A DNA stretch of 64,000 bases from Pseudomonadota bacterium (GCA_049321005.1 JBMOQL010000009.1:5455-69454); one strand, 5' to 3'. Shown: positions 13,387 through 32,893, counted from the first letter of the stretch. Notes: generated by a model not told the origin, from the sequence alone. Made by a program: numbers and translations.

Positions 13387-13407
13387 GCAGGCGGCTGAGC
13401 AGCCGGC

Positions 13408-13466
13408 CTGCCCTGCCCACCTCTGCCCTGCCCTGCCCTGCGCAGGCAACGGGCAACGGGCAACGG
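13408..13466. repeat. short tandem repeats: pentamer CTGCC tract (13408-13442) followed by heptamer GCAACGG x3 (13446-13466)
   Basis: Read directly in the intergenic region between the DUF4357 gene and the AAA ATPase gene. An AT-rich stretch (13495-13535) follows. Confidence 0.8.
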
Positions 13467-13570
13467 CACAATGCCCCGTATCGGCGTGGTTTTGAGCCAG
13501 ATTACAAGTTTTTTTGTAGATCCTGGCAAATAATCGCTTCCGCACGGCCTTTTGCTGCGCGGACAGGACC

Positions 13571-14764
13571 ATGCTGCACCGCTACGCCTTCTCCAACTTC
13601 CAGAGCTTTCGTGAGCGCACCGAGGTGAGCCTGCGGCTCAATGCCAAGGTGCCGCCCATCGGCTGGGAGGCGCGCTCGCCGGGTGGCCATCGGCTGAGCA
13701 CCGCGGCCGCCGTGATCGGTGCCAACGGCTCGGGCAAGACGGCCCTGCTCAAGCCGGTGGTCTTCCTCGCCTGGTTCATGCGGTCGTCCTTCATGGCACC
13801 GGCCGATGCACCCATTCCGCTCACGCCTCACTTCAGCGCGCCGCAGGAGCCGACCGAGATCGAGGCGGAGGCCGAGGACACCCACGGCCAGCTCTGGCGC
13901 TACGTGGTGCGCCTGACGCCGCAGCGGGTGCTGCATGAGGCGCTGTACCGGCAGAAGGTCAAGGGCTTCAGCTACGTCTTCGTACGCGATTGGGACGAGG
14001 CGGCCCAGGCCTACCAGATCAAGCAGCAGGACTTCGGCATGGCGCCGGCCGAGGCGCGCAAGGTGCGGCCCAACGCATCGCTGGTGTCGGCGGCCGCGCA
14101 GTACGGCGTGGCCAAGGCGCTGATGCTCACGCGCATCCATCTGCAGACCAATGTGGCGTCCACCGGCCGCCGGCCGTTCTGGGCGGGCAGCGACCTGCCG
14201 CTGGCCGCCGAGCACTTTGCGCTGAACGAAGCGCAGCAGGCGCAGATGGTGAACCTGCTCACGTCCTGGGACCTGGGCCTGAGCGGCGTGCAGCTGCGCC
14301 AGCTCAAAAGCGAGCTGCCAGGTGAAGACCCCCGCACGGTGTGGTTCCCCTTCGGTGTGCATGCAGACCGCGCGGGCCAGCCGCGTGAGTTGCCGTTCTT
14401 CGAGGAGTCCAGCGGCACGCAGAGCGCGTTTGTGCTGCTGTCGCGCCTGCTGCCCGCGCTGAGCCAGGGTGGCCTGGTGGTGATCGACGAGCTGGAGAAC
14501 GACCTGCACCCGCACATGCTGGAGCCCATCCTGGATCTCTTTGCCCACGAGCAGACCAACCCGCACAAGGCGCAGATCGTCTTCACCTGCCATGCGATGG
14601 AGGTGCTGAACCTGCTGCACAAGTCGCAGGTGATGCTGGTGGAGAAGGACGCCGCCTGCGAAAGCACCGCATGGCGCATGGACAGCGTGCAGGGCATCCG
14701 CAGCGACGACAACTTCTACGCCAAGTACATGGCGGGCGCCTACGGCGCCGTGCCGCAGCTGTGA
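13571..14764 (+). CDS. AAA family ATPase (AAA_15/AAA_21, RloA/OLD-like ABC ATPase)
   Basis: N-terminal FSNFQSFRERTEV, Walker A GANGSGKT and Walker B/D-loop VVIDELENDLHP are present. The stop overlaps the next start (TGATG). Confidence 0.85.
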   Translation: MLHRYAFSNFQSFRERTEVSLRLNAKVPPIGWEARSPGGHRLSTAAAVIGANGSGKTALLKPVVFLAWFMRSSFMAPADAPIPLTPHFSAPQEPTEIEAEAEDTHGQLWRYVVRLTPQRVLHEALYRQKVKGFSYVFVRDWDEAAQAYQIKQQDFGMAPAEARKVRPNASLVSAAAQYGVAKALMLTRIHLQTNVASTGRRPFWAGSDLPLAAEHFALNEAQQAQMVNLLTSWDLGLSGVQLRQLKSELPGEDPRTVWFPFGVHADRAGQPRELPFFEESSGTQSAFVLLSRLLPALSQGGLVVIDELENDLHPHMLEPILDLFAHEQTNPHKAQIVFTCHAMEVLNLLHKSQVMLVEKDAACESTAWRMDSVQGIRSDDNFYAKYMAGAYGAVPQL

Positions 14765-15285
14765 TGGCCCGCCGCTCGGGCGGCCCGACGCTGCGCACGC
14801 AGAAGCGCACGGCGCTGATGGTGGGTGAGGGGCTCGGCGATGAAACCTTCCTGCGGCACCTGAAGCTGCTGTACTTGCTTCGCCGTGACGGCGACATGCG
14901 GATCACCATCAAGAAGGCCAAGGGCAAGGCCGGCGCACACGTACTGGACTTCACGCGGCGCCAATGCAAGATGGCCGACTACGACTGCCGCTTGGCGTTG
15001 TTGGATACCGACACCGATTGGGACGACGCGCAGAGGCGCAACGCCACCCAGTGGGGCATGGAGGTCGTCGAGGCCACGCCCTGCCTGGAGGCCCTGTTGC
15101 TGCGTATTGCCGACATCAAGCCAGCCGCCACGTCGGCCGGGTGCAAGAAGGCCTTCACCAAGCGGTTCAACGCAGAGGCGCATACGCCCGGCGTGTATCA
15201 CCGCCATTTCCCTCAGGCGCTGCTGGACACCGCCCGGACCCGCGTGCCGGAGCTGGATCAATTGATCCGCTTCCTGCAGCAATGA
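14764..15285 (+). CDS. RloB-like protein (partner of the AAA ATPase)
   Basis: ATG at 14764. RTALMVGEGLGDETFLRHL resembles the RloB N-terminal (ilivcEGekTE.yF) motif. This is the typical ATPase+RloB pairing inside Type I R-M loci. Confidence 0.6.
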   Translation: MARRSGGPTLRTQKRTALMVGEGLGDETFLRHLKLLYLLRRDGDMRITIKKAKGKAGAHVLDFTRRQCKMADYDCRLALLDTDTDWDDAQRRNATQWGMEVVEATPCLEALLLRIADIKPAATSAGCKKAFTKRFNAEAHTPGVYHRHFPQALLDTARTRVPELDQLIRFLQQ

Positions 15286-15306
15286 GGGGCTGCCCCGGGG
15301 CGGCTT

Positions 15307-15380
15307 CTGAAGAAAAAATCGCGTCGGGCGCCGAAACTGAAGAAAAGATCGGGCGGCTGAAGATTTTTTCAGCTGAAGGA
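15307..15380. promoter_or_regulatory. repeat-rich AT-rich region upstream of hsdR (CTGAAG x4; A6/T6 dyad)
   Basis: CTGAAG occurs at 15307, 15337, 15357 and 15373. GAAAAAATC (15312-15320) is complementary to GATTTTTTC (15362-15370). The region lies between the RloB stop and the hsdR RBS (GGAGGGAGG). Confidence 0.4.
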
Positions 15381-15407
15381 CGCGCCAGCAGCTGGAGGGA
15401 GGCCGCC

Positions 15408-18400
15408 TTGGCACTGCACACGGAAATCGAATTCGAGAACGACATCTGCCGCCACCTGGCCGAGCACGGCTGGCTGCATGCACCCGGCGATGCTCAGGCC
15501 TACGACACGCCTCGCGCGCTGTTCCCGGCGGATGTGACGGCCTGGGTGCAGGCCAGCCAGCCGCAGGCCTGGGCCGCACTGAGCCAGGCGCATGGCGCGC
15601 ATGCCGAAGCCCTGCTGCTGGAGCGGCTGCGCAAGCAGCTGGATGACCGCGGCACGCTGGACGTGCTGCGCGTGGGCGTTGAGATGCTGGGCTTGAAGGC
15701 GCCGCTGAAGATGGCGCAGTTCAAGCCCGCGCTGGCCATGAACCCCGAGCTGCAGGCGCGCTATGCCGCCAACCGGCTGCGTGTGGTGCGCCAAGTGCGG
15801 ACCAACCATGACGATGTCATCGACCTGGTGCTCTTTCTCAACGGCATCCCGGTGGCCACGGCGGAGCTGAAGTCGGAGTTCACCCAGGGCATCAACGAGG
15901 CGGTGGAGCAGTACCGCTTCGAGCGCCTCCCCAGGCCCAAGGGGCGGGCTGCTGCCGAGCCGCTGCTGGACTTCCCGCGCGGGGCGCTGGTGCACTTCGC
16001 CGTCACCAACCGCACGGTGATGATGACCACCCGGCTGCAGGGCCCGGCCACCCACTTCCTGCCCTTCAACATGGGCGACCACGGCGCGGCCGGCAACCCG
16101 CCCAACAGCCGCGGGCACCGCACGGCGTACCTGTGGGAGCAGGTGTGGCAGCGCGACAGCTGGCTGGAGATCCTCGCCCGCTACCTCGTCACCAAGCGGG
16201 ACGACAAGAAGCGCATCACCAGCGTGCTGTTCCCGCGCTATCACCAGCTCGACGCCACGCGCAAGCTGGTGCAGGCGGTGCTGGCCGAAGGCGTCGGACA
16301 GAAGTACCTGATCCAGCACAGCGCCGGCAGCGGCAAGACCAACTCCATCGCCTGGGCGGCGCACTTCCTCGCCGACCTGCACGATGCCGACAACCGCAAG
16401 CTGTTCAGCACCGTGCTGGTGGTGAGCGACCGCACGGTGCTCGATACCCAGCTGCAGGAGGCCATCTTCGACTTCGAGCGCACCGCGGGCGTGGTGGCCA
16501 CCATCCGCGGCGAAAGCCAGAGCAAGAGCGGTGAGCTTGCCCAGGCGCTGGCCGACGGCAAGAAGATCGTGGTGTGCACGATCCAGACGTTTCCGTTCGC
16601 GCTGCAGGCGGTGCAGGAGCTGGCGGCCACCCAGGGCAAGCGCTTTGCGGTGATCGCCGATGAGGCCCACAGCTCGCAGACCGGTGAAGCCGCCGGCAAG
16701 CTCAAGCAACTGCTGAGCGCCCAGGAGCTGCAGGACCTGGCCGACGGCGGTGAGGTGGCCGCAGAAGACATCCTGGCCGCGCAGATGGCGGCCCGCGCCA
16801 ATGCAGGCCCTGGCGCGACGGGCGGCGCACCGGCCATCACCTACGTCGCCTTCACCGCCACGCCCAAGGCCAAGACGCTGGAGCTCTTCGGCCGCCGGCC
16901 CGACCCCAGTCGGCCCGCCGGGCCCGACAACCTGCCGGCGCCGTTCCACGTCTACTCCATGCGCCAGGCCATCGAGGAGGGCTTCATCCTCGACGTGCTG
17001 CAGAACTACACCTCGTACAAGCTGGCCTTCAGGCTGGCCCACAACGGCCGCGAGTGGGACGACCAGGAGGTCGAGCGCAGCGAGGCCCTGAAGGGCCTGA
17101 TGCGCTGGGTGCGCCTGCACCCGTACAACATCGCGCAGAAGGTCCAGGTGGTGGTGGAGCACTTCCTGGAGAACGTGCAGCCCCTGCTGGGCGGCCATGC
17201 CAAGGCCATGGTGGTCGTCGGCAGCCGCGTGGAGGCCGTGCGCTGGAAGCTGGCCGTGGACGCCTACATCAAGGCCCAGGGCTATGCACTGGGCACGCTG
17301 GTCGCGTACTCCGGCGAGGTGAGCGACCCCGGCTCGTTGCCCGAGGCGGTGAGCGAGAACAGCCCGCTGCTCAACCCCGGCCTGAAGAGCCGCGACATCC
17401 GCGAGGCCTTCGCCACCGACGCCTTCCAGATCCTGCTGGTGGCCAACAAATTCCAGACGGGGTTCGATCAGCCGCTGCTGTGCGGCATGTACGTCGACAA
17501 GAAGCTGGCCGGCATCCAGGCCGTGCAGACCTTGTCCCGCCTGAACCGGGCCTACAACGGCCCGCATGGGCTCAAGGACACCACCTACATCCTCGACTTC
17601 GTCAACGAGCCGCAGGACATCCTGGCCGCCTTCCAGACCTATTACGAAACGGCCGAGCTGGCCGGCGTGACCGACCCTCACCTCATCTTCGATCTGCGCG
17701 CCAAGCTCGACGCCACCGGCCACTACGACGACTTCGAGGTGGACCGCGTGGCGCGGGTGGAGCTCGACCCGCGGGCCACGCAGGCACAACTGGTGGCGGC
17801 CATCGAGCCAGTGGCCGACCGGCTGCTCAAGCGGTTCAAGGCGGCCCGCGCGGCGCTGCAGCCGAGCGCCGGCCAGCCGCCGGCCGGCGCGTCAACCCCG
17901 GCGGAGCAGGCCGCCAAGGACGAGATGGAGGCGCTGCAACTCTTCAAGCGCGACATCGGCACCTTCGTGCGCGTGTATGCCTTCCTGTCGCAGATGTTCG
18001 ACTACGGCAACACGGCCATCGAGAAGCGGGCGATCTTCTTCAAGCGCCTGCTGCCGCTGCTGGACTTCGGCCGCGAGCGCGAGGGGGTGGACCTGTCCAA
18101 GGTGATGCTCACCCATCACCGGCTCAAGGAGCGTGGCACCGCTGCGCTGGTGCTTGGCGAGCCGGGGGCCGACTACAAGCTCCAGCCGATGGAGGCCCCC
18201 GGTAGCGGCCAGATCCAGGACAAGGAAAAGACCCGGCTGTCGGAGATCGTGCAGAAGGTCAACGACCTGTTCGAGGGCGAGCTCACCAACGACGACAAGC
18301 TCATCTACGTCAACGACGTGCTCAAGGGCAAGCTGCTGGAGTCCGACCTGCTGGTGCAGCAGGCGCTGAACAACAGCAAGGAGCGCTTCGCCGATTCCCC

Positions 18401-18590
18401 GGACCTGTCCAGCGAGCTGATGAACGCCATCATCGACGCCTTCGAAGCCCACAGCACCATGAGCCGCCAGGCGCTCGATTCAGAAAAGGTTCGCCAGGGG
18501 CTCAAGCACATCCTGCTGGGCCCGGCCGAGCTGTGGGAGGCACTGCGCAGCCGCGGCACAGCGGCAGGCGGCCGCGCCACGGCGGGCTGA
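15408..18590 (+). CDS. hsdR: Type I restriction enzyme, endonuclease/helicase subunit R
   Basis: A TTG start at 15408 follows GGAGGGAGG. It has a PD-(D/E)xK N-domain (DLVLFLNGIPVATAELKSE), Walker A SAGSGKT and the DEAH box ADEAHSSQ. The upstream extension of ORF 14964..18590 overlaps RloB and is junk. Confidence 0.93.
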   Translation: MALHTEIEFENDICRHLAEHGWLHAPGDAQAYDTPRALFPADVTAWVQASQPQAWAALSQAHGAHAEALLLERLRKQLDDRGTLDVLRVGVEMLGLKAPLKMAQFKPALAMNPELQARYAANRLRVVRQVRTNHDDVIDLVLFLNGIPVATAELKSEFTQGINEAVEQYRFERLPRPKGRAAAEPLLDFPRGALVHFAVTNRTVMMTTRLQGPATHFLPFNMGDHGAAGNPPNSRGHRTAYLWEQVWQRDSWLEILARYLVTKRDDKKRITSVLFPRYHQLDATRKLVQAVLAEGVGQKYLIQHSAGSGKTNSIAWAAHFLADLHDADNRKLFSTVLVVSDRTVLDTQLQEAIFDFERTAGVVATIRGESQSKSGELAQALADGKKIVVCTIQTFPFALQAVQELAATQGKRFAVIADEAHSSQTGEAAGKLKQLLSAQELQDLADGGEVAAEDILAAQMAARANAGPGATGGAPAITYVAFTATPKAKTLELFGRRPDPSRPAGPDNLPAPFHVYSMRQAIEEGFILDVLQNYTSYKLAFRLAHNGREWDDQEVERSEALKGLMRWVRLHPYNIAQKVQVVVEHFLENVQPLLGGHAKAMVVVGSRVEAVRWKLAVDAYIKAQGYALGTLVAYSGEVSDPGSLPEAVSENSPLLNPGLKSRDIREAFATDAFQILLVANKFQTGFDQPLLCGMYVDKKLAGIQAVQTLSRLNRAYNGPHGLKDTTYILDFVNEPQDILAAFQTYYETAELAGVTDPHLIFDLRAKLDATGHYDDFEVDRVARVELDPRATQAQLVAAIEPVADRLLKRFKAARAALQPSAGQPPAGASTPAEQAAKDEMEALQLFKRDIGTFVRVYAFLSQMFDYGNTAIEKRAIFFKRLLPLLDFGREREGVDLSKVMLTHHRLKERGTAALVLGEPGADYKLQPMEAPGSGQIQDKEKTRLSEIVQKVNDLFEGELTNDDKLIYVNDVLKGKLLESDLLVQQALNNSKERFADSPDLSSELMNAIIDAFEAHSTMSRQALDSEKVRQGLKHILLGPAELWEALRSRGTAAGGRATAG

Positions 18591-20290
18591 CGAGCGCTAT
18601 CGGGCGGGTGGCCCCCATCGCGTCCCGCGCGGGCCACGCGATGCCCGCTGCGCCCACGCCTGGGGGCGGTGACGGCACGCGGCCCGCCGCTACGCGCTCG
18701 TCCGCGCCTCACCCGCGGTCTCACCCCCGCCTGATGCGCCCGCTTCAGCGCGGCGACGGCTGCTTCGTGCTGGTGCAGCTCGCCGTCCAGCAGCTCGGCC
18801 ATGCCGCGCCGCACGCCGGCGCGCAGCAGGCGGGGGCCGTGCTCGCCCAGCTCGTCGATGGAGCGCAGCTGTGCGAAGGCCTGCAGCGCGCCGCCCAGGG
18901 CGGCCTGCGCCATCTGGCGCGGTGGGATGGGCCAGTCGGCCTGGGGGCCCGGGTCCGGCCAGGGCAGGCGCGGGATCGGGATCACTTCATAGATGGGCGG
19001 CAGCGTGAACTCGATGACGCGGCAAGGCGGGAACAGCCGCACCGCGCGCTCCCAGGCATAGGCGCCCAGCGTCAGCGCCGAGCCGGTGTGCGTGTCCATC
19101 ACCTCGCGCACCAGGTGCGACATCGCCAGGCTGGCCACCATCGCCTCGAAGCGAGCAGACCGCCCCACGCCCGGCGACAGCCAGTGGGCGATGTTGCGGT
19201 AGTACTGGTCGATCTGCGCCAGCACCCGCTGGCCGTTGGCCGATGCGGTGAAGCCCTGCCGCCACAGCGGCGCGCGGGGATCGCTGAAGCCGGGGCGATT
19301 GGCCGCGTTGTCGCCGATCAGGTTGATGTCGAAGAAGTGGTGCCAGGTGGAGTGCACCACCACGCGGCCGACGCCGGCGCGGTGGCCGTCATAGGCGCCG
19401 ATGGTCCCGCTCCAGCGCGCATTCGACGGCTGGTCGTCACCGGTGTGGATGCCGTGCATCACTTCGGGGTCGGCCCGGCCGGTCGTCCAGCCCCAGGCCA
19501 CCACCTCCGGCGCGACACGCTGGCCGTCGGCGCCGGGCGGGTATTCATCGAACGTCATGCCGCCCAGCGTCATCTGCGCATCGAGCTTGTCCGGCACCCG
19601 CACCTCGCCCTCGTGCATGTGGTCCGGAAACTCGGTGATCGCGCCGGCGCTGCTGCACAGCAGCGGGTGCGGATACGTCTCGCGGTACCAGGTGTGACGC
19701 GCCCATTCGTACCACTTCAGGCGCAGCTTCTGCGGGATGTCGTCGGACTGGTTCTCGAACACCACCACGTCGTGCGCATCGGGCTGCGTGGTGTCGACCC
19801 GCGTGGGGCCCAGCGCCGGCGGCGGGCTGCTCCAGGCGCGCATGGAGCGCACCCGCGGCAGCTGCCCGGCCAGGGCGGAGCCCAGCCCGGCATGGTCACC
19901 CGTGGCGAACACGCCGCCGCCCTGGTTCATGAACCGGGCGATCGCGGCGCACTCGTGATCCGGCAGCACGCCGGTGTCATAGCCCAGCAGCCAGATCTGG
20001 TCGTAGGCGCTCAGGTCATGGGCGCTGAAGTCGAAATGCTGCAGCACCCCCGGCGCCCCCAGCGGATCCGTGCCGCGATGCGCCTTGGTGACCCGGCCGA
20101 TCTCCTGCAGCACGCCCATCAGATGGCTCATGCCGAAGTAGTCTTCGTTCAGATTGCGCGGATCGTGCTCAGGCCCGCAGGACACGATGGTGTCCGTGAC
20201 CACCAGGATGTCCAGCACCAGCCAGCGGCCGATCAGGTCCGACAGCCGCACACGCCGCTCGGGATCGAGCATCTCCTTCCAGATCGTCAT
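18305..20290 (-). CDS. hypothetical protein with GATase1-like/DUF4159-like N-terminal domain; 3' end uncertain
   Basis: ATG at 20290 is preceded by GGAGA. YDQIWLLGYDTGVLPDHECAAIARFMNQGGGVFATGDHAGLG resembles the class-I glutamine-amidotransferase-like fold. The last ~135 codons are Arg/Pro-rich and antisense to hsdR. A G5 run (18724-18728) would give a stop at 18721 if one base shorter. Confidence 0.6.
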   Translation of the reverse strand: MTIWKEMLDPERRVRLSDLIGRWLVLDILVVTDTIVSCGPEHDPRNLNEDYFGMSHLMGVLQEIGRVTKAHRGTDPLGAPGVLQHFDFSAHDLSAYDQIWLLGYDTGVLPDHECAAIARFMNQGGGVFATGDHAGLGSALAGQLPRVRSMRAWSSPPPALGPTRVDTTQPDAHDVVVFENQSDDIPQKLRLKWYEWARHTWYRETYPHPLLCSSAGAITEFPDHMHEGEVRVPDKLDAQMTLGGMTFDEYPPGADGQRVAPEVVAWGWTTGRADPEVMHGIHTGDDQPSNARWSGTIGAYDGHRAGVGRVVVHSTWHHFFDINLIGDNAANRPGFSDPRAPLWRQGFTASANGQRVLAQIDQYYRNIAHWLSPGVGRSARFEAMVASLAMSHLVREVMDTHTGSALTLGAYAWERAVRLFPPCRVIEFTLPPIYEVIPIPRLPWPDPGPQADWPIPPRQMAQAALGGALQAFAQLRSIDELGEHGPRLLRAGVRRGMAELLDGELHQHEAAVAALKRAHQAGVRPRVRRGRARSGGPRAVTAPRRGRSGHRVARAGRDGGHPPDSARQPAVARPPAAVPRLRSASHSSAGPSRMCLSPWRTFSESSAWRLMVLWASKASMMAFISSLDRSGESAKRSLLLFSACCTSRSDSSSLPLSTSLT

Positions 20291-20456
20291 CGCCGTCTCC
20301 AAGGCTGCCGGCATCACGGACCCACAGGGCGCAGGTCTCGGGCCGGTGCGCGAGGAGTGTCGTCACGGGGGCGGGGCGGCTATATCCCTAGGGAAGAGCA
20401 GTGCGACTTGAAGCTAGGGGTTGAGTGACCAGGCGGCCTGTGCGCGAGCAGTGAGA

Positions 20457-20643: not shown

Positions 20644-21040
20644 AAGGGCACCTTCGGGAAACCGCCGGAAACGGAGCCGCACGTCGAGAGCCCGGGGCAT
20701 CGCTCTTGGCGGCCCTGCACAGCTGGCGATGTGGCCTTTAGCGCTGGCGCCGTCAAGGGTTGCGACGCGGAGCCGATGAGAGCCACCGCCATGCAGCGCT
20801 TGCGGTCGCTGGTTTCCGCCGGACGTAATCACACTGTCCGTCGTCAGGCAGCCATTGGGCACGAACGCGAAGCGCCAACTTCACCGGCTGCTATACGAAA
20901 TGCTGCAGCCGTATCGGTCTCGCGCCCGAGTCGGCATGTCGTCAACGACCATTTCCTCTCCGCCGCAACTGGAGGTCTCAAGCCTGAGCTACCTAGCAAG
21001 GGCCCCTCCATCCGGGATCCCTGGACTTCCTTACACTAAC

Positions 21041-21060
21041 GCGACTGCACAGATAGTCGC
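21041..21060. promoter_or_regulatory. candidate operator: inverted repeat GCGACT-N8-AGTCGC immediately upstream of the RHH gene
   Basis: Perfect 6-bp arms lie 11 nt upstream of the ATG at 21071. A -10-like TACACT sits at 21032-21037. The layout is reminiscent of C-protein boxes of R-M systems. Confidence 0.35.
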
Positions 21061-21070
21061 GGGGCAAGTC

Positions 21071-21292
21071 ATGACGTTCGATGAAATAAAAACCGACACA
21101 CTAAACCTTCGGGTCGCACCGTCTTTCAAGGCTACTTTGAAGGCCGTGGCCGATGCCGAGCATCGCAGCATGGTGAACATGCTTGAAGTGTTGCTGGCCA
21201 ATTACTGTTCGAACTCACACAGGGCACATCGTTCTGCGGTCAAGGCCCATACACCTTATCGAGCAGCGCCCAAGCACAAGCGCACCCCATGA
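21071..21292 (+). CDS. ribbon-helix-helix (CopG/Arc-like) DNA-binding protein, putative controller of the downstream operon
   Basis: ATG at 21071. TLNLRVAPSFKATLKAVADAEHRSMVNMLEVLLANY fits the beta-strand/helix/helix RHH pattern. The stop overlaps the methyltransferase start (ATGA at 21289-21292). Confidence 0.65.
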   Translation: MTFDEIKTDTLNLRVAPSFKATLKAVADAEHRSMVNMLEVLLANYCSNSHRAHRSAVKAHTPYRAAPKHKRTP

Positions 21293-22305
21293 GCCTGTGG
21301 GCACCTACAAGAACACTACTGCTCAGCCCGATTCCAGTGAAACTGAACGAATTTGACCTGTTGAAGCTCGCTTCAACAGCACACTACTTAAAAGCCAGCC
21401 AGTCTCAGGATGCCTCCGAGCTGCTGACGCACGACTACGCTCTCTGGCAAGGTAGGCTCGAAGGGCTGCTAAAGCTGCTTCCCAATGAGCCGCTCTTTGA
21501 CCTGATCGTGTCCTCCCCCCCGTACAACATCGGGAAAGAGTACGAGACTCGGCAAGCACTCGACAGCTATTTGGAGTGGCAAGAGCAGATCATTGATGCG
21601 CTGGTCCCTCGGCTCAAGCCGGGCGGTTCCTTGTGCTGGCAGGTGGGCACCTATGTCGATGACAACCAGATATGGCCTCTGGACATCGAGTTCGCTCCGA
21701 TCTTTAAGCGCCACGAATTGCAGCTACGCAATCGCGTGGTATGGCACTTTGGCCATGGCCTGCATGCTCAGAAGCGCTTCTCGGGCCGCTACGAGGTTGT
21801 GCTTTGGTACACCAAGACCAAGACCAACAAAGACAAATACACCTTCAATCTGGACATCGTTCGGGTGCCTGCAAAATACCCCGGAAAAAAGCACTTCAAG
21901 GGCCCCAACCAGGGCGAGTTCTCAGGCAATCCGTTGGGCAAGAACCCCGAAGACGTTTGGAACATCCCGAACGTCAAGGGCAACCACGTTGAAAAGACAG
22001 ATCACCCTTGCCAATTCCCCGTGGGCCTTATCGAGCGGCTGGTGCTCTCGCTCACGAACCCAGGGGACTTGGTGTTTGATCCGTTTGCAGGCGTTGCCTC
22101 TGCGGGCGTAGCAGCAGCTTTGCATGCCCGTCGCTTTTGGGGATGCGAGCTGAACGCCGGCTACGCCAAGACAGGCTTTAAACGATTGCAAGAAACCCTC
22201 AACGGCACGATCCGCTATCGCCCCCACAACAGGCCCGTGTTTGATCACACGAGAAGTAGCCTGTCGCGGGCCCCGGAGGGGTACAGAACTCGGGAGGAAG
22301 AGTGA
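21289..22305 (+). CDS. beta-class N4-cytosine/N6-adenine DNA methyltransferase (N6_N4_Mtase family)
   Basis: Motif IV IVSSPPYNIGKEY near the N-terminus and motif I VFDPFAGVASAG near the C-terminus give the beta-class permutation. SPPY is more typical of N4C enzymes. Confidence 0.9.
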   Translation: MSLWAPTRTLLLSPIPVKLNEFDLLKLASTAHYLKASQSQDASELLTHDYALWQGRLEGLLKLLPNEPLFDLIVSSPPYNIGKEYETRQALDSYLEWQEQIIDALVPRLKPGGSLCWQVGTYVDDNQIWPLDIEFAPIFKRHELQLRNRVVWHFGHGLHAQKRFSGRYEVVLWYTKTKTNKDKYTFNLDIVRVPAKYPGKKHFKGPNQGEFSGNPLGKNPEDVWNIPNVKGNHVEKTDHPCQFPVGLIERLVLSLTNPGDLVFDPFAGVASAGVAAALHARRFWGCELNAGYAKTGFKRLQETLNGTIRYRPHNRPVFDHTRSSLSRAPEGYRTREEE

Positions 22306-22757
22306 AGTTCTACAAGTACAGCCACTGTGCTGGGGACAAGTCAGTCCCCAAGAGCCATCAAAAAGACATTGAGGGAGCCATTGCTGCCATCACGATCAAG
22401 CCGGCAGAGGGTGCTGCCACCAAAATTCGTGATTCATTTTTGATCACGATGAAGTCCATGGGCTGGTCGGGCGAGGTTCAAGTCTCAAAGGACTCGGACA
22501 TGACCATCACGTCCAGCAAAGACAATGTGGGGCTGTGTCTGCAAACGGGCAACGTGGCCCGGATCTACGCGGACATCATCAAGCTGCAAGTGCTGTACTT
22601 CGACAACGCGATCAGCAGTGCTGCCATCGTTGTGCCCTCGCAAGAGGTCGCCAAAGCCATTGGTAAGAACATCGCACAAGCCAAACGCCTTGAACGTGAG
22701 TTGGAAATTTTCAAGAAGGCGTACCACGTCCCGACCCTTGTCTACGCCTTGGAGTGA
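22302..22757 (+). CDS. miniature BglII/BamHI-fold restriction-endonuclease-like protein (151 aa)
   Basis: The GTG start overlaps the MTase stop. DNVGLCLQTGNVARIYADIIKL aligns by eye with BglII RDTLVEVQFSNYPFLLNN. AAIVVPSQEVAKAIGKNIAQAKRLERELEIF..HVPTLVYAL aligns with VAIIITKGHMF..YEQAQNQLNSLAE..DVPIRLVGL. It lacks the ~70 C-terminal residues of BglII. Confidence 0.55.
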   Translation: MKFYKYSHCAGDKSVPKSHQKDIEGAIAAITIKPAEGAATKIRDSFLITMKSMGWSGEVQVSKDSDMTITSSKDNVGLCLQTGNVARIYADIIKLQVLYFDNAISSAAIVVPSQEVAKAIGKNIAQAKRLERELEIFKKAYHVPTLVYALE

Positions 22758-24082
22758 GCATGACCGATAACCAGAATGCCCAGATGGCAGCGAGCTCGCG
22801 CTTTGGCTGGCCCAAGCCCAAACGCACCGAAGAGTTTGCCAAGTTGCTGGCCAACCCGCCCGGTGCCACGGATCGCGTCGTGTTCCAAGGCAAGACCATC
22901 GACATTCCGATCATTCGCGTTCCTATTGATCTGCCCAAGTACCGTTTGGTGAACGGCCGAACCGCGTCCTTGCAGTCGGAGTACCTCGCCAAGAATCCCA
23001 AAGCACGAGCTGATCTTTTCAGCGGAGATCCGGAGCTATGGGATGCCCAGGAAGCGCAGCATAACTTACTGCTGCAACTGGCAAAACAAGCCGATCTTGC
23101 CGGCTACTTTGACGACACGACCAACCAACAGGTCAACCCGATCCTGCTCGATGAAAACGGCTTCGTCGTTAATGGCAATCGGCGCCTGGCGACCTGGCGT
23201 GAGCTCTTGCACAAGGAGCCTGGCACTTACAAGCACTTCCAGCACATCGACATTGCAGTGCTTCCACACTGCGAAGAGAAAGAGATTGATCGACTCGAAG
23301 CCAGGCTTCAAATCACCAAGGATATTCGCGCGAATTACAGCTGGGACGCGCAGGCCAACATGATGCTGGCCAAGCAAAAGCGCGACAACTTTTCCAACAA
23401 GGAGTTGGCTGAGCTGTACGACATGAAAGAGGCCGAAGTCCAGTTGCTCTTTGACATGCGTGCCTATGCCGAAGAATTCTTGAAGTCGCGTGCCAAGCCT
23501 AATCACTGGTCGATGGTTTCGGACTCCGAATTCGCCTTCAAGAAGATCGTGGCTGCTCGGGGGAAAATTTCCAGCGTAGGCAAGCAGCAGGTCTTCAAGG
23601 AGGCTGCATTCATCTTGATCGATAAGCCCGAGGAAGCTGGAAGCCGTCTGTACGAAGCAATTCCTGCCGTGCTCGATAGCATTGACGAAGTTCGTACCAA
23701 ACTGCTTGAAGCCTTCAAAGTTGAAGCTGCCAAGCCCGCTGATGATGCCCTGACAGATCTCTTTGGCGGTGTACCGACGGCTGCCGGCGAGGACCCCAGG
23801 GACTTGCCGCTGGCTCAGGAGATTCAGAAGCCCGAGAACGTCGATGCCGCTCGCAAGATCATTGTCGAGGTCATCGAGAGCCAGCGGCAGCTTCAAAAGG
23901 ACGCCAAGAGTGCAAACTATCTTCTGGATTGCTGTGCAAAGGCCCAGGCTGCTCTTGCCGCAGCCGTGAAGGAGGGTTTGCGTCCCGAGTCAAAGCTCGA
24001 TGGCGTGATCAAGCAGCTCGAAGCCATTCAAGCTCAGTCTGAAAAGATTCGAGCCTACGTGGAACAGCATGCTAAGCGTTGA
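22754..24082 (+). CDS. ParB/Srx-like N-terminal domain protein with long helical C-terminal region
   Basis: IPIIRVPIDLPKYRLVNGRT plus NPILLDENGFVVNGNRRLATW match the two conserved ParB N-domain boxes (including GxRR). The start overlaps the previous stop. The C-terminal half is Ala/Lys/Glu-rich and predicted helical. Confidence 0.6.
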   Translation: MSMTDNQNAQMAASSRFGWPKPKRTEEFAKLLANPPGATDRVVFQGKTIDIPIIRVPIDLPKYRLVNGRTASLQSEYLAKNPKARADLFSGDPELWDAQEAQHNLLLQLAKQADLAGYFDDTTNQQVNPILLDENGFVVNGNRRLATWRELLHKEPGTYKHFQHIDIAVLPHCEEKEIDRLEARLQITKDIRANYSWDAQANMMLAKQKRDNFSNKELAELYDMKEAEVQLLFDMRAYAEEFLKSRAKPNHWSMVSDSEFAFKKIVAARGKISSVGKQQVFKEAAFILIDKPEEAGSRLYEAIPAVLDSIDEVRTKLLEAFKVEAAKPADDALTDLFGGVPTAAGEDPRDLPLAQEIQKPENVDAARKIIVEVIESQRQLQKDAKSANYLLDCCAKAQAALAAAVKEGLRPESKLDGVIKQLEAIQAQSEKIRAYVEQHAKR

Positions 24083-25895
24083 CTATCGAGAGGTTGACCG
24101 ACGGGCGGTTTTGAGCTGGGCAGCCCCCGACGAGTCGGCTCCATGGTTCGATGTCATTAAACGCCTGATCCTCGATTCGACCGAAGACGCCAAGCAAGAA
24201 GCCGCGCTCACGATCTCGCTGCCGTGGTGGAACTTCATCGCCTTGCGCAATCGCTTCGGCGAGGTGTGTGCGGGATACAACCTGCTCCCTGGCAGCACCC
24301 TTGGAGTCAGCCCAAAAGCTGCTGACTTGCTTCGCCAATCGCGCCGAGCTACTGACGGCTATCAGCTTGCAATGCAAGCACAGGCAGTCGAGGAGCTGCA
24401 ACTGCGCGCCAAGCTGAAAGAGCTGGGCTTTGCTCGTAACCTCACCGAGAAGCAGGCTCGCAACGTTTGCCGCATTGCAGCACTGCCAGCAGGTGCTACG
24501 TTCTCGGTTCCAGGCGCTGGTAAGACTACCGAAGCACTTGCGACCTTCTTCTATCGGGCAAATGGCGATGAACGTCTACTGGTGATCGCACCGAAGAACG
24601 CCTTCGCCGCTTGGGATGAGCAGATTAAAGACTGCATGCCCCATCTGCAGACGCAGTTCACTCGACTGCGGGGCGGCAAGGAAAAGATTGCCAAACTGCT
24701 TGGTGAAGATCCGCGATGGCTGCTCATCACGTATCAGCAACTCGCTCGCGTCCCGGATTTGGTTGCTGCCCATGTTGCGCAACACAAGACGCACGTCTTT
24801 CTCGACGAAAGCCACCGCATCAAGAGCGGTGTGGGGAAGCAGACAGCGCGAGCCGCTCTGGGCCTTGCTCACTTGCCTGTTGGCAAGTTGATCATGTCAG
24901 GAACGCCCATGCCCCAGGATGCTGAGGATTTGATCCCTCAGTTTGCATTCCTCTATCCTGAAATTCCGAGCAACAAGGACACGGTGGTTGAGCTCATCAA
25001 GCCCGTGTACGTGCGCACCAACAAGACTGAATTGGGTCTGCCGCCTGTGACTCGGGTGATGGTGCCGCTTCCAATGGCCCCCATGCAAAGTGAGCTCTAC
25101 AAGCTCATGAAGTTTGAGGTATCCCGTGAAGCTGCCACGGCGCTCAATACGCGCAGCAAACAGGCGTTTCGGAGTCTAGGTCGCTCGGTCGCACGTCTCT
25201 TGCAGTTTGTCTCCAACCCGGCGCTCTTGTCGTCGGAGATCAGCTTCGCTCACGCCGATTTGTTGGCCGGGGTTTTGGCAGAAGGTGATGGCCCGAAGCT
25301 CAAATACGTCTTGAAGAAGGCCCGGCAACTTGCCCGTGAAGGGCACAAGGTGCTTATCTGGTCGTCGTTCGTTCGCAACGTCGAATACATCGCACAGCGG
25401 CTTGCTGACCTCGGTGCTGTTTACATCCACGGTGGTGTGGATGCCGGCGATGAGGACGACGATGAAACGCGCGAAGGCAAGATCAAGCTCTTTCACGACG
25501 ATCCAGATGTTCGGGTCATGGTAGCCAATCCAGCCGCCGCCAGTGAAGGCGTGAGCCTGCACCGCGTGTGCCACCATGCGCTGTATCTGGATCGGACCTT
25601 TAACGCTGCGCATTACTTGCAATCGGAAGATCGCATCCATCGCTTTGGATTGCCGCCCGAACAGGAGACCCGCATCGAAATTGTGGAGTGCTTAGATTCG
25701 GTGGATGAGACCGTTCGCCTGCGACTAGGCTTGAAGATCGGTGCGATGGCTGAGGCGTTGGACGACTCGTCCCTACGCCCCGACCCTATTGCCCTGGACC
25801 CGACCGACATTGACGACTACGAGGAGTACAGCACTGGATTGTCCTCCGATGACATTGAGGCGTTGCTCAAAGACTTCAACAGGGGGCAAGAGTGA
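24069..25895 (+). CDS. SNF2-family (SF2) helicase/translocase
   Basis: Motif I VPGAGKTTEA, motif II FLDESHRIKS, motif III MSGTPMPQ and motif VI QSEDRIHRFGL are present. It overlaps the upstream gene by 14 nt. Confidence 0.85.
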   Translation: MLSVDYREVDRRAVLSWAAPDESAPWFDVIKRLILDSTEDAKQEAALTISLPWWNFIALRNRFGEVCAGYNLLPGSTLGVSPKAADLLRQSRRATDGYQLAMQAQAVEELQLRAKLKELGFARNLTEKQARNVCRIAALPAGATFSVPGAGKTTEALATFFYRANGDERLLVIAPKNAFAAWDEQIKDCMPHLQTQFTRLRGGKEKIAKLLGEDPRWLLITYQQLARVPDLVAAHVAQHKTHVFLDESHRIKSGVGKQTARAALGLAHLPVGKLIMSGTPMPQDAEDLIPQFAFLYPEIPSNKDTVVELIKPVYVRTNKTELGLPPVTRVMVPLPMAPMQSELYKLMKFEVSREAATALNTRSKQAFRSLGRSVARLLQFVSNPALLSSEISFAHADLLAGVLAEGDGPKLKYVLKKARQLAREGHKVLIWSSFVRNVEYIAQRLADLGAVYIHGGVDAGDEDDDETREGKIKLFHDDPDVRVMVANPAAASEGVSLHRVCHHALYLDRTFNAAHYLQSEDRIHRFGLPPEQETRIEIVECLDSVDETVRLRLGLKIGAMAEALDDSSLRPDPIALDPTDIDDYEEYSTGLSSDDIEALLKDFNRGQE

Positions 25896-26782
25896 TCCCC
25901 TTCTCGCCAGGTCTTGCCCAGGGCTGTTTCGAGCTTCTCGCTATCACTGCGAGGCAACAGCTCACCTTCACAGAGATCAAGAGCTCATTTGCCTATCTTG
26001 GCAGTTTGCCTACTCAGATAGTCGTAGAAACAGCACAAGCACTCAACTGGCTGCAAGCCAGCGAACATGGGCGTGCAGAACACACCCCATCGGGATCACG
26101 GTTGTTTGCAATCCCGGGGTACGAAGCTCAACTGCGCCAAGCCCTGTTGGACTATATAGACATAGAGCACCCTAGTTGGGTGCAGAACGCGAGCTTTGGT
26201 CGCAGTCGCGTCCTTAGCTTTGCTGGAAGTCAAATTGCTCAGGTATTTGCAGAAGCAGGGCTAGCAGAGGGAACCAGTGAATCAATCGTTGCATTTTGGG
26301 ATGCACTTGCCGCTCGTGCTCGTGGTCAACGGGACGACAAGCTCTCCCGGATCGGCCGTTGGGGCGAGCGCCTGACCATCGACTATGAAGCCCAAAGAAC
26401 TGGAAGACATCCAACATGGGTTGCCATCGACAACAACGCCGATGGCTATGACGTGCTTTCGGTTGTTGGGCCGACAGACCCTCATCGACTGACCATCGAG
26501 GTAAAGACCTCGACGCAAGGCACTTCTGGATTTGCCATGCTCACCCGCAACGAGTGGGAAATGGCTGTGGAATCAGAGCGCCACGCCTTTTATCTTTGGA
26601 ATCTGCGAAACCTATTAGAACCCAAGCTTGCCATCGTCAGTCGCGAGACCATGCTCAATCACATGCCACAAGATCAGGGCATGGGGCAGTGGGATTGCAC
26701 CAAGGTTCCGTTTTCTGCGTTCACGGAACAGTTCGCCTCGCTTAACAGTAACAAAGAAACAAGTCGCCTATTTGAACACTAG
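25892..26782 (+). CDS. DUF3883 (NO VEIN C-terminal-like, PD-(D/E)xK fold) domain protein
   Basis: The GTG start overlaps the SNF2 stop. GRWGERLTIDYE..ADGYDVLSV..LTIEVKTST..FAMLTRNEWEMAV..AFYLWNL matches the DUF3883 D...E-x-K core. Confidence 0.7.
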   Translation: MIPFSPGLAQGCFELLAITARQQLTFTEIKSSFAYLGSLPTQIVVETAQALNWLQASEHGRAEHTPSGSRLFAIPGYEAQLRQALLDYIDIEHPSWVQNASFGRSRVLSFAGSQIAQVFAEAGLAEGTSESIVAFWDALAARARGQRDDKLSRIGRWGERLTIDYEAQRTGRHPTWVAIDNNADGYDVLSVVGPTDPHRLTIEVKTSTQGTSGFAMLTRNEWEMAVESERHAFYLWNLRNLLEPKLAIVSRETMLNHMPQDQGMGQWDCTKVPFSAFTEQFASLNSNKETSRLFEH

Positions 26783-27041: not shown

Positions 27042-28925
<1,884 letters not shown>

Positions 28926-30254: not shown

Positions 30255-31391
30255 CTACCGGGGCAGGCTCAAGCCAATGGCGCTGCGCAGCGGCAGGTAG
30301 GCATCCAGCGCAGGCGACACGGGCGCCGGCCGCGCCGGCAGAGGCGTCGCGGCGCGGCCGGCGCCCGGTGGGACAGCCTCGTTGGCCGGCGCCACCGGCT
30401 CGGCGCCGGCGGCCCTGGCATCGTCACCGGGCAGCTCCTGCGCGTCCGCCTGGGAGGCCGCAACAAGCGAGCCGGGTGGCCGCTCGTCTTCCAGCCGGCT
30501 CTTGCGCGACTGCGTGGATGGGCGCCCGGATGCCGCCGACGCGGCCGATGCCGGCGCCGCAGCGGGACGAGTCGGCTCACCCGCCTGCGCAAGCCGGTCG
30601 GCGCGGAGGGCTGGGGTTGGGCCGGGACTCGTCTCGGCAGACCCGCCGGCCTGCGCAGCGCGGGCGAAGGTGTCGGGCGTGGGCGGGCCCGCCGCGGTGG
30701 GCGCCGCAGCGAGATCGCCGGGGGATGGCATGGTGGCAGGCCGCGCTTCCTCCGCCGAGGCGGCCTGGGTGGCCACGGCTTCGGCCCCGCTGTCGGCGAG
30801 GTCGGCCCCGATGTCGACTACAGGCTCGGGCGCCGCACCACCCGAAGGCAGAAGGACGCCCCCGGCCCCGCTGGCGTGCGCCGCCGGGCGGCTGTCCGGC
30901 ACGACAGCGGCCGCCTGCCACGCGCGCAGCACAGCCTGCTCGGCCTGCGCCTGCTGATGCGCCCACCAGGCCCAAACCGATCCGGCCACCGTCACCAGGG
31001 CGGCCGAGCCGGCGCCCGCCGTCCAGCGCAGCGGGTGGCGCTCCATCCTGCGGCGTAAAGCGCGCAAGATACGCCGGCGGCGGGGCAGCAGCGGCAGCAG
31101 GGCCCGGCGCTGATCGGGCTCCGAGCGTGCAGCCGCATCGATGCGCAACTGGGCGTCATATGCGGCGCGGCCGGCCGGGTCGCTCAGGACGGCGTAGGCG
31201 GCATTGATGGCGGCCATGGCATCGCCGTCAGTGGGCTGGGCGCCCCGGCGGTCCGGGTGGTACAGCGAGGCCAGCGCCCGATAGGCCGCGCGGATGACCT
31301 CCGGCGGCGCCTCGGACGAGACCTGCAGCCGCTCGTAGTGCGTGGGCGTGCGCCCGCTGGCACGCAAGCCGGCTGGGCGCGGGGCGTCCAT
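30255..31391 (-). CDS. J-domain (DnaJ-like) membrane protein with Ala/Pro-rich C-terminal region
   Basis: HYERLQVSSEAPPEVIRAAYRALASLYHPDR..AINAAYAVLSDPAGRAAYD is a J domain with the HPD motif. A hydrophobic segment (GSAALVTVAGSVWAWW) follows. Confidence 0.7.
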   Translation of the reverse strand: MDAPRPAGLRASGRTPTHYERLQVSSEAPPEVIRAAYRALASLYHPDRRGAQPTDGDAMAAINAAYAVLSDPAGRAAYDAQLRIDAAARSEPDQRRALLPLLPRRRRILRALRRRMERHPLRWTAGAGSAALVTVAGSVWAWWAHQQAQAEQAVLRAWQAAAVVPDSRPAAHASGAGGVLLPSGGAAPEPVVDIGADLADSGAEAVATQAASAEEARPATMPSPGDLAAAPTAAGPPTPDTFARAAQAGGSAETSPGPTPALRADRLAQAGEPTRPAAAPASAASAASGRPSTQSRKSRLEDERPPGSLVAASQADAQELPGDDARAAGAEPVAPANEAVPPGAGRAATPLPARPAPVSPALDAYLPLRSAIGLSLPR

Positions 31392-32824
31392 CAGCTCGGC
31401 TTCTTCACCGGCCGCTTCCAGCCCGGCAGGCTGACCTGCCGCGCGCGGGCAACCGTCAGCTGCCCTGCCGGTGCGTCCTTGGCCAGGGTGCTGCCGCCGC
31501 CGATGGTGGCGCCGTCGCCCAGGGTGACGGGCGCGATCAGCACGCAGTTGCTGCCCACGTGCACGTCGGCGCCGATCACCGTGCGGTGCTTGTTGGCACC
31601 GTCGTAGTTGGCGGTGATGCTGCCGGCGCCGAAGTTGACGCGCTCACCCACCGTGGCATCGCCCAGATAGGCCAGGTGGTTGGCCTTGGCCCCGGCGGCC
31701 AGCGTGGAGTTCTTGACCTCGACGAAGTTGCCGATGTGCACGTCCGCGCCCAGCTTGGCGCCAGGGCGCAGGCGGGCATAGGGGCCCACGATGGCGCCGG
31801 GGCCGACTTCCACGCCGGCGGCATCGCCTTCGATGTGGCAATAGGCATGCAGCGTGGCGCCGGCTGCGATGCGCGCGTTGCGGATCACGCAGTAGGGCCC
31901 GATGCGCACGCCGTCGCCCAGCTCCACCCGGCCCTCGAAAACGCAGCCCACGTCCACCTCCACGTCGCGGCCCACCTGCAGCTCGCCGCGCAAGTCGAAC
32001 CGCGCTGGATCGGCCAGGCGCAGGCCCTGCTCCATCAGCCCTTCGGCCTGCTGGCGCTGCAGCCGGCGCTCCAGGTCGGCCAGCTGCGCCGGGCTGTTGA
32101 CACCCAGCACCTCGATCTCGCTGGCCGGGTGGGCGGCGCACACATGGGTGCGGTCGGCCTCGGCCTGGGCGACGACGTCGGTCAGGTAGTACTCGCCCTG
32201 GGCGTTGTCATTGGTCAGACGGCTCAGCCAGCGGCGCAACGCGGCGGTGGGTGCGGCCATCACGCCGGTGTAGACCTCGCGGATCGCGAGCTGCCGCGGG
32301 TGGGCGTCCTTCTGCTCGACGATGCCCAGGATGCGCCCGCCCTCGCCTTCACGCGCTGAATCCCCGCTGCGCACGATGCGCCCGTAGCCGGTCGGGTCGT
32401 CCAGGTGCACGGTGAGCAGGGCCAGGTTCTTGCCGGCGCAGGCCTCGATCAGCGCCTGCGCGGTCTCGGTGCGGATCAGCGGCGTGTCGCCGTTGAGGAT
32501 CAGCGTGATGCCACCGGCGTCGTCTGCCAGGTGCGGCGCGGCCTGCTGCACCGCATGGCCGGTGCCCAGCTGCGGCTCCTGGCGCACGAACTGCAGCGGC
32601 AGCGCAGCGGCCTGCGGCGCCATCGCGGCCTCCACCTGCTCGGCGCCGTGGCCGGTGATCACGTGGATGCGCCGCGCGCCCAGGCCGGCGCAGGCGTGGA
32701 TCACGTGGGCCAGCATCGGCCGGCCGGCCAGCGTGTGCAGCACCTTGGGCCAGGCGGACTTCATCCGCGTGCCCTTGCCGGCGGCCATGATGACGATGTC
32801 AAGCGGGTGGGCGGATGCGATCAA
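31391..32824 (-). CDS. glmU: bifunctional UDP-N-acetylglucosamine diphosphorylase / glucosamine-1-phosphate N-acetyltransferase
   Basis: [16 protein letters not shown] is followed by left-handed beta-helix hexapeptide repeats. The probable TTG start at 32824 follows GAGGGA. Confidence 0.93.
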
Positions 32825-32893
32825 GGCTTTCCCTCGGTGGTCGTTGTGCAGGGCGGCAGCCCGCAGGCTGCGGTGTGGGCGCAGTCTGCCCAA

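Follow-up and report, generated by a model that had tools for sequence, protein, structure and literature searches.

A 5.7-kb cassette of six genes, located in a 64,000-nucleotide stretch of DNA from a Pseudomonadota bacterium (GCA_049321005.1, JBMOQL010000009.1:5455-69454; the whole stretch is referred to as the window, and positions are counted from its first nucleotide), is inherited as one unit with tightly coupled gene junctions, and a DNA methyltransferase always accompanies it. With moderate confidence, we interpret this cassette as a multi-subunit, ATP-dependent, methylation-blocked defence system of the restriction-modification (R-M) type, probably descended from a BamHI/BglII-type array of controller, methyltransferase and restriction endonuclease genes (C-M-R). 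This interpretation is supported by the fact that the catalytic residues of the DUF3883 protein and the motifs of the SNF2 ATPase are intact, while the catalytic acids of the BamHI-like protein have been lost. A preliminary description of the same DNA had proposed a candidate modification-dependent system; its account of the gene anatomy, of the single unit and of the surrounding defence island stood up to the analysis, whereas the effector role that it gave to the BglII-like protein, the modification dependence and a candidate operator did not. In particular, modification-dependent is the wrong term, given that the linkage of the methyltransferase is obligatory, as in R-M systems, and methylation should therefore block the system and not trigger it.

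Translation of the window confirmed the six consecutive plus-strand open reading frames (ORFs) of the proposed operon, between 21 and 27 kb, together with all the domains previously assigned to their products (methyltransferase, BglII-like, ParB-fold, SNF2 and DUF3883). The first gene (21071..21292) encodes a small putative ribbon-helix-helix (RHH) regulator of 73 aa, an accessory part of the cassette; it is followed by the genes for a beta-class amino-DNA methyltransferase (21289..22305, 338 aa), predicted to be the self-marking component, a BamHI/BglII/BstYI/OkrAI-family protein without catalytic acids (22302..22757, 151 aa), predicted to be a non-cleaving site reader, a protein that probably adopts the ParB fold (22760..24082, 440 aa) and could act as a nucleoside triphosphate (NTP)-gated DNA clamp or adaptor, a SNF2-family ATPase (24069..25895, 608 aa), a predicted translocase of double-stranded DNA, and a DUF3883/NOV_C protein of the PD-(D/E)xK type (25892..26782, 296 aa), predicted to be the DNA-cutting effector. 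The labels given by NCBI to the window's own proteins are hypothetical, DNA-methyltransferase, DEAD/DEAH helicase and DUF3883. The start of the small gene had been placed at 21041, where the codon is GCG; the start is the ATG at 21071, which matches the 73-aa product called by NCBI. All five junctions had been described as overlaps, and four of them were confirmed: the stop of the small gene and the start of the methyltransferase gene overlap in an ATGA at 21289-21292, the methyltransferase and BamHI-like genes in a GTGA at 22302-22305 that has GGGAGGAAGA just upstream, the ParB-like and SNF2 genes share 14 nt (24069-24082), and the SNF2 and DUF3883 genes overlap in a GTGA at 25892-25895. The third junction is probably a 2-nt spacer, although a GTGA does exist at 22754-22757, because the true start of the ParB-like gene is almost certainly the ATG at 22760, 2 nt past the upstream stop codon; its homologs of 439-440 aa begin with MT and the NCBI product has 440 aa. 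The GC content of the 21-27 kb region is 55-57%, as compared with approximately 70% on both sides, in agreement with the AT-richer cluster noted before, and from this profile and the limits of the blastn matches, the low-GC, horizontally transferred cassette extends from 21024 to 26740 (plus strand).

The organization of the cassette is conserved in distant bacteria. A pattern scan, using one genome per species, yielded 37 loci, whose gene order was then established by tblastn. The genes encoding the methyltransferase, the endonuclease-like, ParB-like, SNF2 and DUF3883 proteins are colinear in essentially every locus of sufficient length, about 30 loci that represent about 10 phyla. The hosts belong to the Beta-, Gamma- and Alphaproteobacteria, Verrucomicrobiota, Acidobacteriota, Planctomycetota, Desulfobulbus, Peptococcaceae, Chloroflexia, Eremiobacterota and Fimbriimonadaceae, and further copies are present in Pseudomonas protegens, in one metagenome contig and on a Paracoccus chromid. 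The junction spacings are also conserved across phyla (-4, +2 to +4, -14 and -4 nt), and the repetition of gene order and spacing in about 30 loci is far beyond chance. At the nucleotide level, blastn showed that positions 21135-26738 of the window are 89.6% identical to a locus of Inhella crocodyli (L001), and positions 21024-26662 are 76.9% identical to a locus of a Burkholderiaceae genome (L002); the flanks of these two loci have no homology to those of the window. Since nucleotide homology is confined to the cassette and the flanks are unrelated, the cassette moves as a unit. Colinear genes, retained spacings and transfer without flanks thus bear out the single unit that had been proposed. 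Remnants were observed at two loci, one (L025, 9935-10822) retaining 19 C-terminal aa of the BglII-like protein and the first 274 aa of the ParB-like protein, and the other (L031, 10001-10450) with an internal ParB-like fragment only, which suggests decay after loss of function.

The 151-aa protein belongs, by sequence and fold, to the BamHI/BglII/BstYI family of restriction endonucleases. It matches Endonuc-BglII (1e-5; 25.8 bits, cutoff 26) and BamHI (0.05) in Pfam, and REase_II (1.4e-6) in PADLOC, and a profile of 25 family sequences searched against the PDB recovered OkrAI (4.8e-4), BstYI (8e-4) and BamHI (0.03); precomputed matches to PF02923 and PF09195 are present on all its listed homologs. 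These homologs form 322 clusters, almost all of 151-155 aa; the solved relatives (194-213 aa) are longer than the 151-aa protein by 40-70 residues. An invariant GLCLQTGN sequence aligns with GMEFETGN of BamHI and AIEVQFGK of BstYI; the position of the catalytic Glu is occupied by C79 and the E/Q position by Q81, while T70 is found at the position of the catalytic Asp (LDAV in OkrAI, D119 in BstYI). T70, C79, Q81 and N84 are invariant across the 25 sequences, and the acidic catalytic signature of the BamHI/BstYI family is absent from this protein. We take the catalytic residues to be D94, E111 and E113 in BamHI, and D119, E128 and Q130 in BstYI, a numbering that is consistent with the alignments; the TGN loop, which is retained in the 151-aa protein, is presumably the DNA-contact loop of the family. 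Given that T70 and C79 replace the catalytic Asp and Glu, the protein is presumed to be unable to cut, and the loss of these acids together with the conservation of the TGN loop suggests a methylation-sensitive reader. A non-cleaving reader of site sequence and methylation is thus, probably, a better description of this BglII-like protein than the effector it had been thought to be.

The genes that accompany the ParB-like, SNF2 and DUF3883 trio vary in an informative way. In eight alphaproteobacterial loci (L013-L020) the PF01555 methyltransferase is absent, and the gene for a conserved C5-cytosine methyltransferase (PF00145, 1e-41) directly follows that of DUF3883, in convergent orientation; the endonuclease-like gene stays with the trio where the class of methyltransferase changes. 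This non-homologous displacement indicates that the methylation function, and not one methyltransferase lineage, is what is kept. The co-occurrence of the trio, which the preliminary description had singled out for a check, therefore holds either with the PF01555 enzyme or with a C5-methyltransferase instead. A distant sister family, referred to as subfamily 2, was found through a plasmid tblastn match; it comprises at least 473 clusters and is present in Rhizobium (pRL11), Achromobacter and Arthrobacter. In its loci (L038, 5039-10011; L040, 8195-13107; L041, 8215-13141) an endonuclease homolog is followed by the ParB-like, SNF2 and DUF3883 genes, the SNF2 protein being 37-40% identical to that of the window. 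The slot before the ParB-like gene encodes here a protein of 260-288 aa that matched PADLOC REase_II (PDLC03501, 2.8e-19) alone, searches of the PDB and Pfam having found nothing; in all three genera a C5-methyltransferase and Vsr adjoin the block. The slot is occupied by a type II endonuclease homolog in both subfamilies, from different families, with the exception of a Firmicute locus (L032) that carries the methyltransferase and the trio; a 161-aa ORF upstream of the L032 methyltransferase was considered as a displaced BglII-like gene and proved to be unrelated. The constant core is formed by the ParB-like, SNF2 and DUF3883 proteins, and a type II endonuclease homolog and a methyltransferase of any chemistry are its exchangeable partners, a modularity that is expected of an R-M system. 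In Aurantimonas (L017) two other genes precede the cassette: one encodes a 1390-aa protein without a Pfam match that has HNH-like Cys/His motifs at its C-terminus (3929-8101, plus strand), and the other (8273-8911, minus strand) is serine recombinase/invertase-like, as assigned by eye from the translation.

The same genes could be viewed as two systems lying side by side, a C-M-R type II R-M system (RHH, methyltransferase and BglII-like protein) and an unrelated ParB-like/SNF2/DUF3883 trio. The layout of the first three genes is the classic one of controller, methyltransferase and endonuclease, PADLOC labels two of the products MTase_II and REase_II, some homologs are listed by NCBI as "BglII/BstYI family type II restriction endonuclease", and L032 has the trio and a methyltransferase with no endonuclease-like gene. 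We consider this arrangement unlikely, because all 25 sequences lack the catalytic Asp and Glu, and the protein has 151 aa versus 194-213 aa in its solved relatives, with nearly all of its 322 homolog clusters at 151-155 aa. Moreover, the gap between the endonuclease-like and ParB-like genes is 2-4 nt in every locus, the three endonuclease-like homologs sampled for gene context all sit in the cassette, and the gene remains with the trio when the methyltransferase class changes, whereas in subfamily 2 the same slot is filled with another endonuclease family.

The motor and nuclease components conserve the residues expected for activity. The SNF2 protein matches SNF2-rel_dom (PF00176, 2e-16) and Helicase_C (PF00271, 3.7e-7) in Pfam, and its Walker A (GAGKT), DESH box and motif VI (QSEDRIHRFG) are intact, which places it in the SNF2 family; its relatives in the PDB are Sth1, Snf2, CHD1L and the Sso Rad54-like protein. 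Its matches in PADLOC (ZorD, DpdE, DrmD and HmaA) are weak and partial, and its first ~140 aa have no assigned domain. The DUF3883 protein carries a C-terminal NOV_C domain (PF13020, 4e-11) after ~140 aa that likewise have no assigned domain, and a search of the PDB with its profile found nothing. An alignment of 21 orthologs shows no variation at E159, D187, E203-V-K205 and E221, and the D...ExK (+E) catalytic signature of NOV_C is present. D187, E203, K205 and E221 correspond to residues of HmaA that are required for activity, namely D1084, E1104, K1106 and E1121, whose requirement has been reported for nicking and for defence (PMC11232893); the defence of HmaA against T4 needs its NOV_C nickase (PMC11232893).

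The methyltransferase matches PF01555 (N6_N4_Mtase, 2e-47) in Pfam and MTase_II (5e-75) in PADLOC. Motif IV (SPPY, around residue 75) precedes motif I (FDPFAGVAS, around residue 263), which is the signature of the beta class, and in 18 orthologs SPPY is invariant and FDPFAGVAS is conserved. Its specificity is probably N4-cytosine; the Ser of SPPY is the single feature that points to it, because the nearest solved relatives in the PDB span N6-adenine enzymes (M.RsrI and MboIIA) and N4-cytosine enzymes. A Ser in the SPPY motif of amino-methyltransferases is taken as a sign of N4-cytosine specificity, and M.BamHI and M.BglII are also SPPY N4-cytosine enzymes. Regarding the small protein, a weak Arc match in Pfam (0.048) and a beta-strand/helix/helix sequence pattern that fits RHH are the basis of its putative identity; a hemerythrin match in the PDB search was spurious. 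Homologs at the same position are present in L001, L002, L009, L011, P. protegens (L044, 72% identity) and L045. In L033 an excisionase/AlpA-type helix-turn-helix (HTH) protein is encoded upstream of the methyltransferase (6834-7031, plus strand), where the RHH-like protein sits elsewhere, and the regulator slot therefore appears to be exchangeable. Upstream of the small gene in the window no sigma-70-like promoter was found and the sole inverted repeat (20841-20898) is weak; the candidate operator proposed for this controller was not substantiated, as neither operator nor promoter is detectable in that region.

The obligatory methyltransferase also bears on a guard or abortive infection model, in which the methyltransferase and the reader would form an epigenetic sensor, and the trio would attack host DNA when a phage disturbs methylation or site occupancy. 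Defence by the SNF2 and NOV_C domains of HmaA has been described as abortive infection, and HmaA NOV_C only nicks supercoiled DNA (PMC11232893); besides, ParB/Srx domains act elsewhere as NTP-regulated sensors or NTPases (PMC12065111, PMC5512222). Nevertheless, a methyltransferase that is obligatory and whose chemistry is swapped, together with an endonuclease-derived reader, are hallmarks of self/non-self marking, and none of the cassette proteins resembles a known phage-protein sensor, so that we regard this model as quite improbable.

The ParB-like protein of the window has no match to a ParB family in Pfam and none whatever in PADLOC, and its profile gave no significant match among PDB sequences. 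Among the members of its family, a ddrB-ParB match was obtained for 1 of 22 (0.0098, weak) and a TIGR00180 match for 3 of 39 (0.008 or weaker, far under the cutoff), and some members are named ParB N-terminal or ParB/Srx domain proteins by NCBI and UniProt. The family comprises 1127 clusters at 50% identity (E <= 1e-3), and 318 at E <= 1e-30. In an AlphaFold2 (AF2) model built from 15 close homologs the predicted local distance difference test (pLDDT) of the N-domain was <50; when the alignment was widened to 39 sequences, including subfamily 2, a model with a mean pLDDT of 76 was obtained. In this model, strands 128-130 and 135-138 form a beta-hairpin that is followed by a helix (140-152) beginning at G139-N-R-R-L-A; after it the chain continues into an HTH-like segment (195-243) and then long C-terminal helices, while N65-G-R67 precedes the hairpin. 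The model thus shows the N-terminal fold of ParB, a GxxRxxA motif where the post-hairpin helix begins, and then an HTH. When it was compared with the PDB using Foldseek, the top 29 matches were all of the ParB family (Noc, Spo0J, ParB-CTP, KorB and pNOB8 ParB-N), with probabilities of 0.9-1.0 and E-values of 2e-3 to 0.1, and they covered the N-domain and the HTH. We assign the ParB fold to this protein with moderate confidence. N65-G-R67 and G139-N-R-R142 are invariant, and N138-G-N-R-R142 is invariant across both subfamilies. We take the Asn of GNRR to occupy the place of the catalytic Glu of GERR, and that of NGR to stand for the Gln of QPR; these substitutions may allow nucleotide binding with slow hydrolysis.

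In no locus does the cassette include a ParA-type gene, and the neighbours of the ParB-like gene are always the SNF2 and endonuclease-like genes; the adjacent ParA ATPase that characterizes ParABS is thus lacking, and a canonical ParB gene, sought as a comparator in the window and the loci, was not found. The absence of a ParA partner is one reason why it seems very unlikely that the cassette serves a mobile element, either in its maintenance by partition or addiction, or as an anti-restriction module of ParB, methyltransferase and SNF2 proteins. This idea draws on the fact that ParB, N6-adenine methyltransferases and SWI2/SNF2 are recurrent hubs of the polyvalent proteins of invasive elements (PMC5512222), and also on the mobility of the cassette, some copies of which lie on plasmids or chromids; however, its proteins are separate rather than polyvalent, the majority of copies are chromosomal, and the copy in the window is beside a type I R-M island. 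None of 50,697 phage genomes carries the ParB-like family, which has 4 records in 72,556 plasmids and a single match in IMG/VR, at the end of a contig. Finally, methyl-directed repair or recombination, in which the SNF2 protein, the nuclease and the ParB-like binder would use the methyltransferase mark for the choice of strand or site, is hardly credible: SNF2 and nuclease pairings occur in repair and Vsr adjoins subfamily 2, but Vsr routinely goes with C5-methyltransferases and the N4/N6-type loci lack it, and a patchy horizontal spread and a low-GC island location fit defence and not housekeeping.

For the methylation-blocked R-M type system that we favor, the following mechanism can be envisaged. 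The SPPY methyltransferase would mark a short site in the host DNA, probably as N4-methylcytosine, and the 151-aa BamHI-fold protein, itself non-cutting, would read the same sites when they are unmethylated. The reader placed on an unmethylated site would license the NTP-dependent closing of the ParB-fold protein on DNA, and the latter would then recruit the SNF2 ATPase, which would translocate along double-stranded DNA; by analogy with the NOV_C nickase of HmaA, the DUF3883 protein would nick or cleave the DNA. On arrival in a new host, the timing of expression would fall to the small RHH-like protein, a role like that of the C proteins of type II systems. A cassette working in this way would represent a new, NTP-dependent class of R-M systems, with a degenerate type II endonuclease (BamHI-like in one branch, of another family in the second) as the non-cutting, methylation-sensitive reader and a ParB-type clamp, gated by CTP or another NTP, that loads SNF2 and NOV_C onto foreign DNA, a more specific proposal that is possible though we hold it only tentatively. 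Several points weigh against our interpretation. The order of events and the role given to the ParB-like protein are purely inferred, and the assignment of the latter to ParB comes from one AF2 model and Foldseek, with no sequence match in Pfam or the PDB. The invariant T70 and C79 at the old active site could mean a non-canonical chemistry instead of inactivity. In addition, L032 has no endonuclease-like gene, and the reader is therefore not strictly essential to the core, and the C5-methyltransferase of the Achromobacter locus (L040) may serve a neighbouring R-M system, because it sits with candidate R genes of its own.

If the cassette restricts phages or plasmids, a widespread system would be hidden at present behind annotations that show a "type II R-M" pair and otherwise hypothetical proteins, and the question would be opened of how a restriction-enzyme fold becomes a pure reader of DNA and methylation. 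Two further questions would be how SNF2 motors and NOV_C nucleases are coupled where they are not fused as in HmaA, and whether a nucleotide-gated clamp of the ParB type can work in immunity instead of in chromosome segregation. If the clamp reading is true, a canonical ParB-like sliding clamp would be seen in an immune role for the first time, and the cassette would mark a clear path by which simple type II enzymes evolved towards motor-driven restriction. The natural swaps of methyltransferase class and endonuclease family around a constant ParB/SNF2/nuclease core provide ready specificity variants.

The genes that surround the cassette in the window support the previous account of a defence island beside glmS. 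A type I R-M system is located upstream, at 9489-18590 of the plus strand (hsdM 9489-11234, hsdS 11231-12529, hsdR ~15285-18590), and the interval between hsdS and hsdR encodes a DUF4357 protein that corresponds to the PADLOC candidate PDC-S14 (7e-101), and an AAA_21 ATPase that corresponds to PADLOC AbiLi (5e-71); this type I system with its two extra genes is the upstream part of the island. On the other side, 260 nt separate the end of the cassette from the 3' end of glmS (27042-28925, minus strand), and glmU is found at 31391-32893 on the same strand. We take the spot beside the 3' end of glmS to be a classic insertion site of the attTn7 type; no transposase or integrase was noticed among the genes annotated near the cassette, in a search that was not exhaustive and did not include Tn7 ends. 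Between hsdR and the cassette there is a 670-aa ORF on the minus strand (18305-20317) whose GC content at third codon positions (GC3, 0.90) is coding-like; it has no match in Pfam or PADLOC, and its 3' end (low-coordinate) overlaps, as listed, the 3' end of hsdR. Far from the island, the GC content of the 53000-61000 region is 78-80%, as compared with ~70-73% elsewhere in the window.

The gene set does not have a name in PADLOC 2.0, NCBIfam or the open literature, DefenseFinder, REBASE and subscription-only papers being outside the scope of the search; no model and no paper was found that would change the earlier statement that it is not a recognized system. None of the six proteins is represented by a specific model in NCBIfam 20.0 (June 2026), PADLOC 2.0 has no model for the ParB-like protein, and a comparison of the gene set with ARMADA, Druantia, Menshen and the BREX-related, Dnd-related and plasmid-immunity systems gave no match. 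In Pfam, PADLOC and NCBIfam, the signature genes of DISARM, Dnd and Dpd are absent from the six proteins, as had been noted, and none of these proteins is DpdA (tRNA-guanine transglycosylase), DndACDE, SspABCD, or PglZ plus BrxC. The signature genes of Zorya are also absent, the SNF2 model matches being generic and partial, and the matches to DpdE are those of a generic SNF2 protein (E 4e-13 to 3e-3; NF041062, 17.5 bits versus a cutoff of 500).

The nearest relative whose function has experimental support is Hma, a system related to Type-1 BREX in which HmaA is an SNF2-NOV_C protein, HmaB a DUF1156 methyltransferase and HmaC a DUF499 ATPase (PMC11232893, PMC12839542). Both have an SNF2 ATPase, a DUF3883/NOV_C domain with the same D...ExK...E residues, and a linked DNA methyltransferase. 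In contrast with the fused HmaA, the SNF2 and DUF3883 proteins of the cassette are encoded by separate overlapping genes; there is no DUF1156 or DUF499 match in the operon, the HmaA model covers only residues 423-527 (C-lobe) of the SNF2 protein (9e-9), and the endonuclease-derived and ParB-fold proteins are absent from Hma. Without the fusion, the DUF1156 methyltransferase and the DUF499 ATPase, and with a match limited to the C-lobe, the cassette is not a member of Hma. The likeness to DISARM (class 1: DrmA, DrmB, DrmC, DrmD and DrmMI) consists of a methyltransferase and a SNF2-family helicase in a methylation-based multi-gene operon; however, the cassette has no DUF1998 protein, DrmA helicase or phospholipase D (PLD) nuclease, and no DrmE match. 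DrmD models cover ~110 C-lobe residues of the SNF2 protein (3e-7 to 2e-3; NF038317, 31 bits against a cutoff of 610), and the DrmA matches are also partial and in the C-lobe.

Domains of the ParB superfamily act as sensors or switches in DNA-targeting immune systems (PMC12065111, PMC10164549). The cassette protein would share with the ParB/Srx defence NTPases (GmrSD, SspE, NsnA of Menshen, DndB and DpdB) a nucleotide-binding domain followed by a DNA-binding domain, but these are of the DUF262/DGQ(H/Q)R type, whereas the cassette protein has GNRR and no DUF262 or DndB match, and its fold is nearest to that of ParB, Noc and KorB, the canonical CTP-dependent clamps; in no defence system of that group is the ParB-type protein paired with SNF2 and DUF3883. 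The ParB-like theme that had been drawn between the cassette and Dnd/Dpd is a loose one.

With the BamHI, BglII, BstYI and OkrAI R-M systems that have a C protein, the cassette shares the controller-methyltransferase-endonuclease layout and the same endonuclease family; it differs in that its endonuclease-like protein has Thr and Cys in place of Asp and Glu and is 40-70 residues shorter, in that its controller looks like RHH and not HTH, and in that ParB-like, SNF2 and nuclease genes are obligatorily attached. Type I and type III R-M systems differ from the cassette, whose functions are distributed on separate small proteins with no HsdS or target recognition domain (TRD) and no Mod/Res, whose motor is of the SNF2 type, and which has an extra ParB-fold component; in contrast, the logic proposed here would be shared with them, namely a self-marking methyltransferase, a reader of unmethylated sites, a superfamily 2 motor and a PD-(D/E)xK nuclease.

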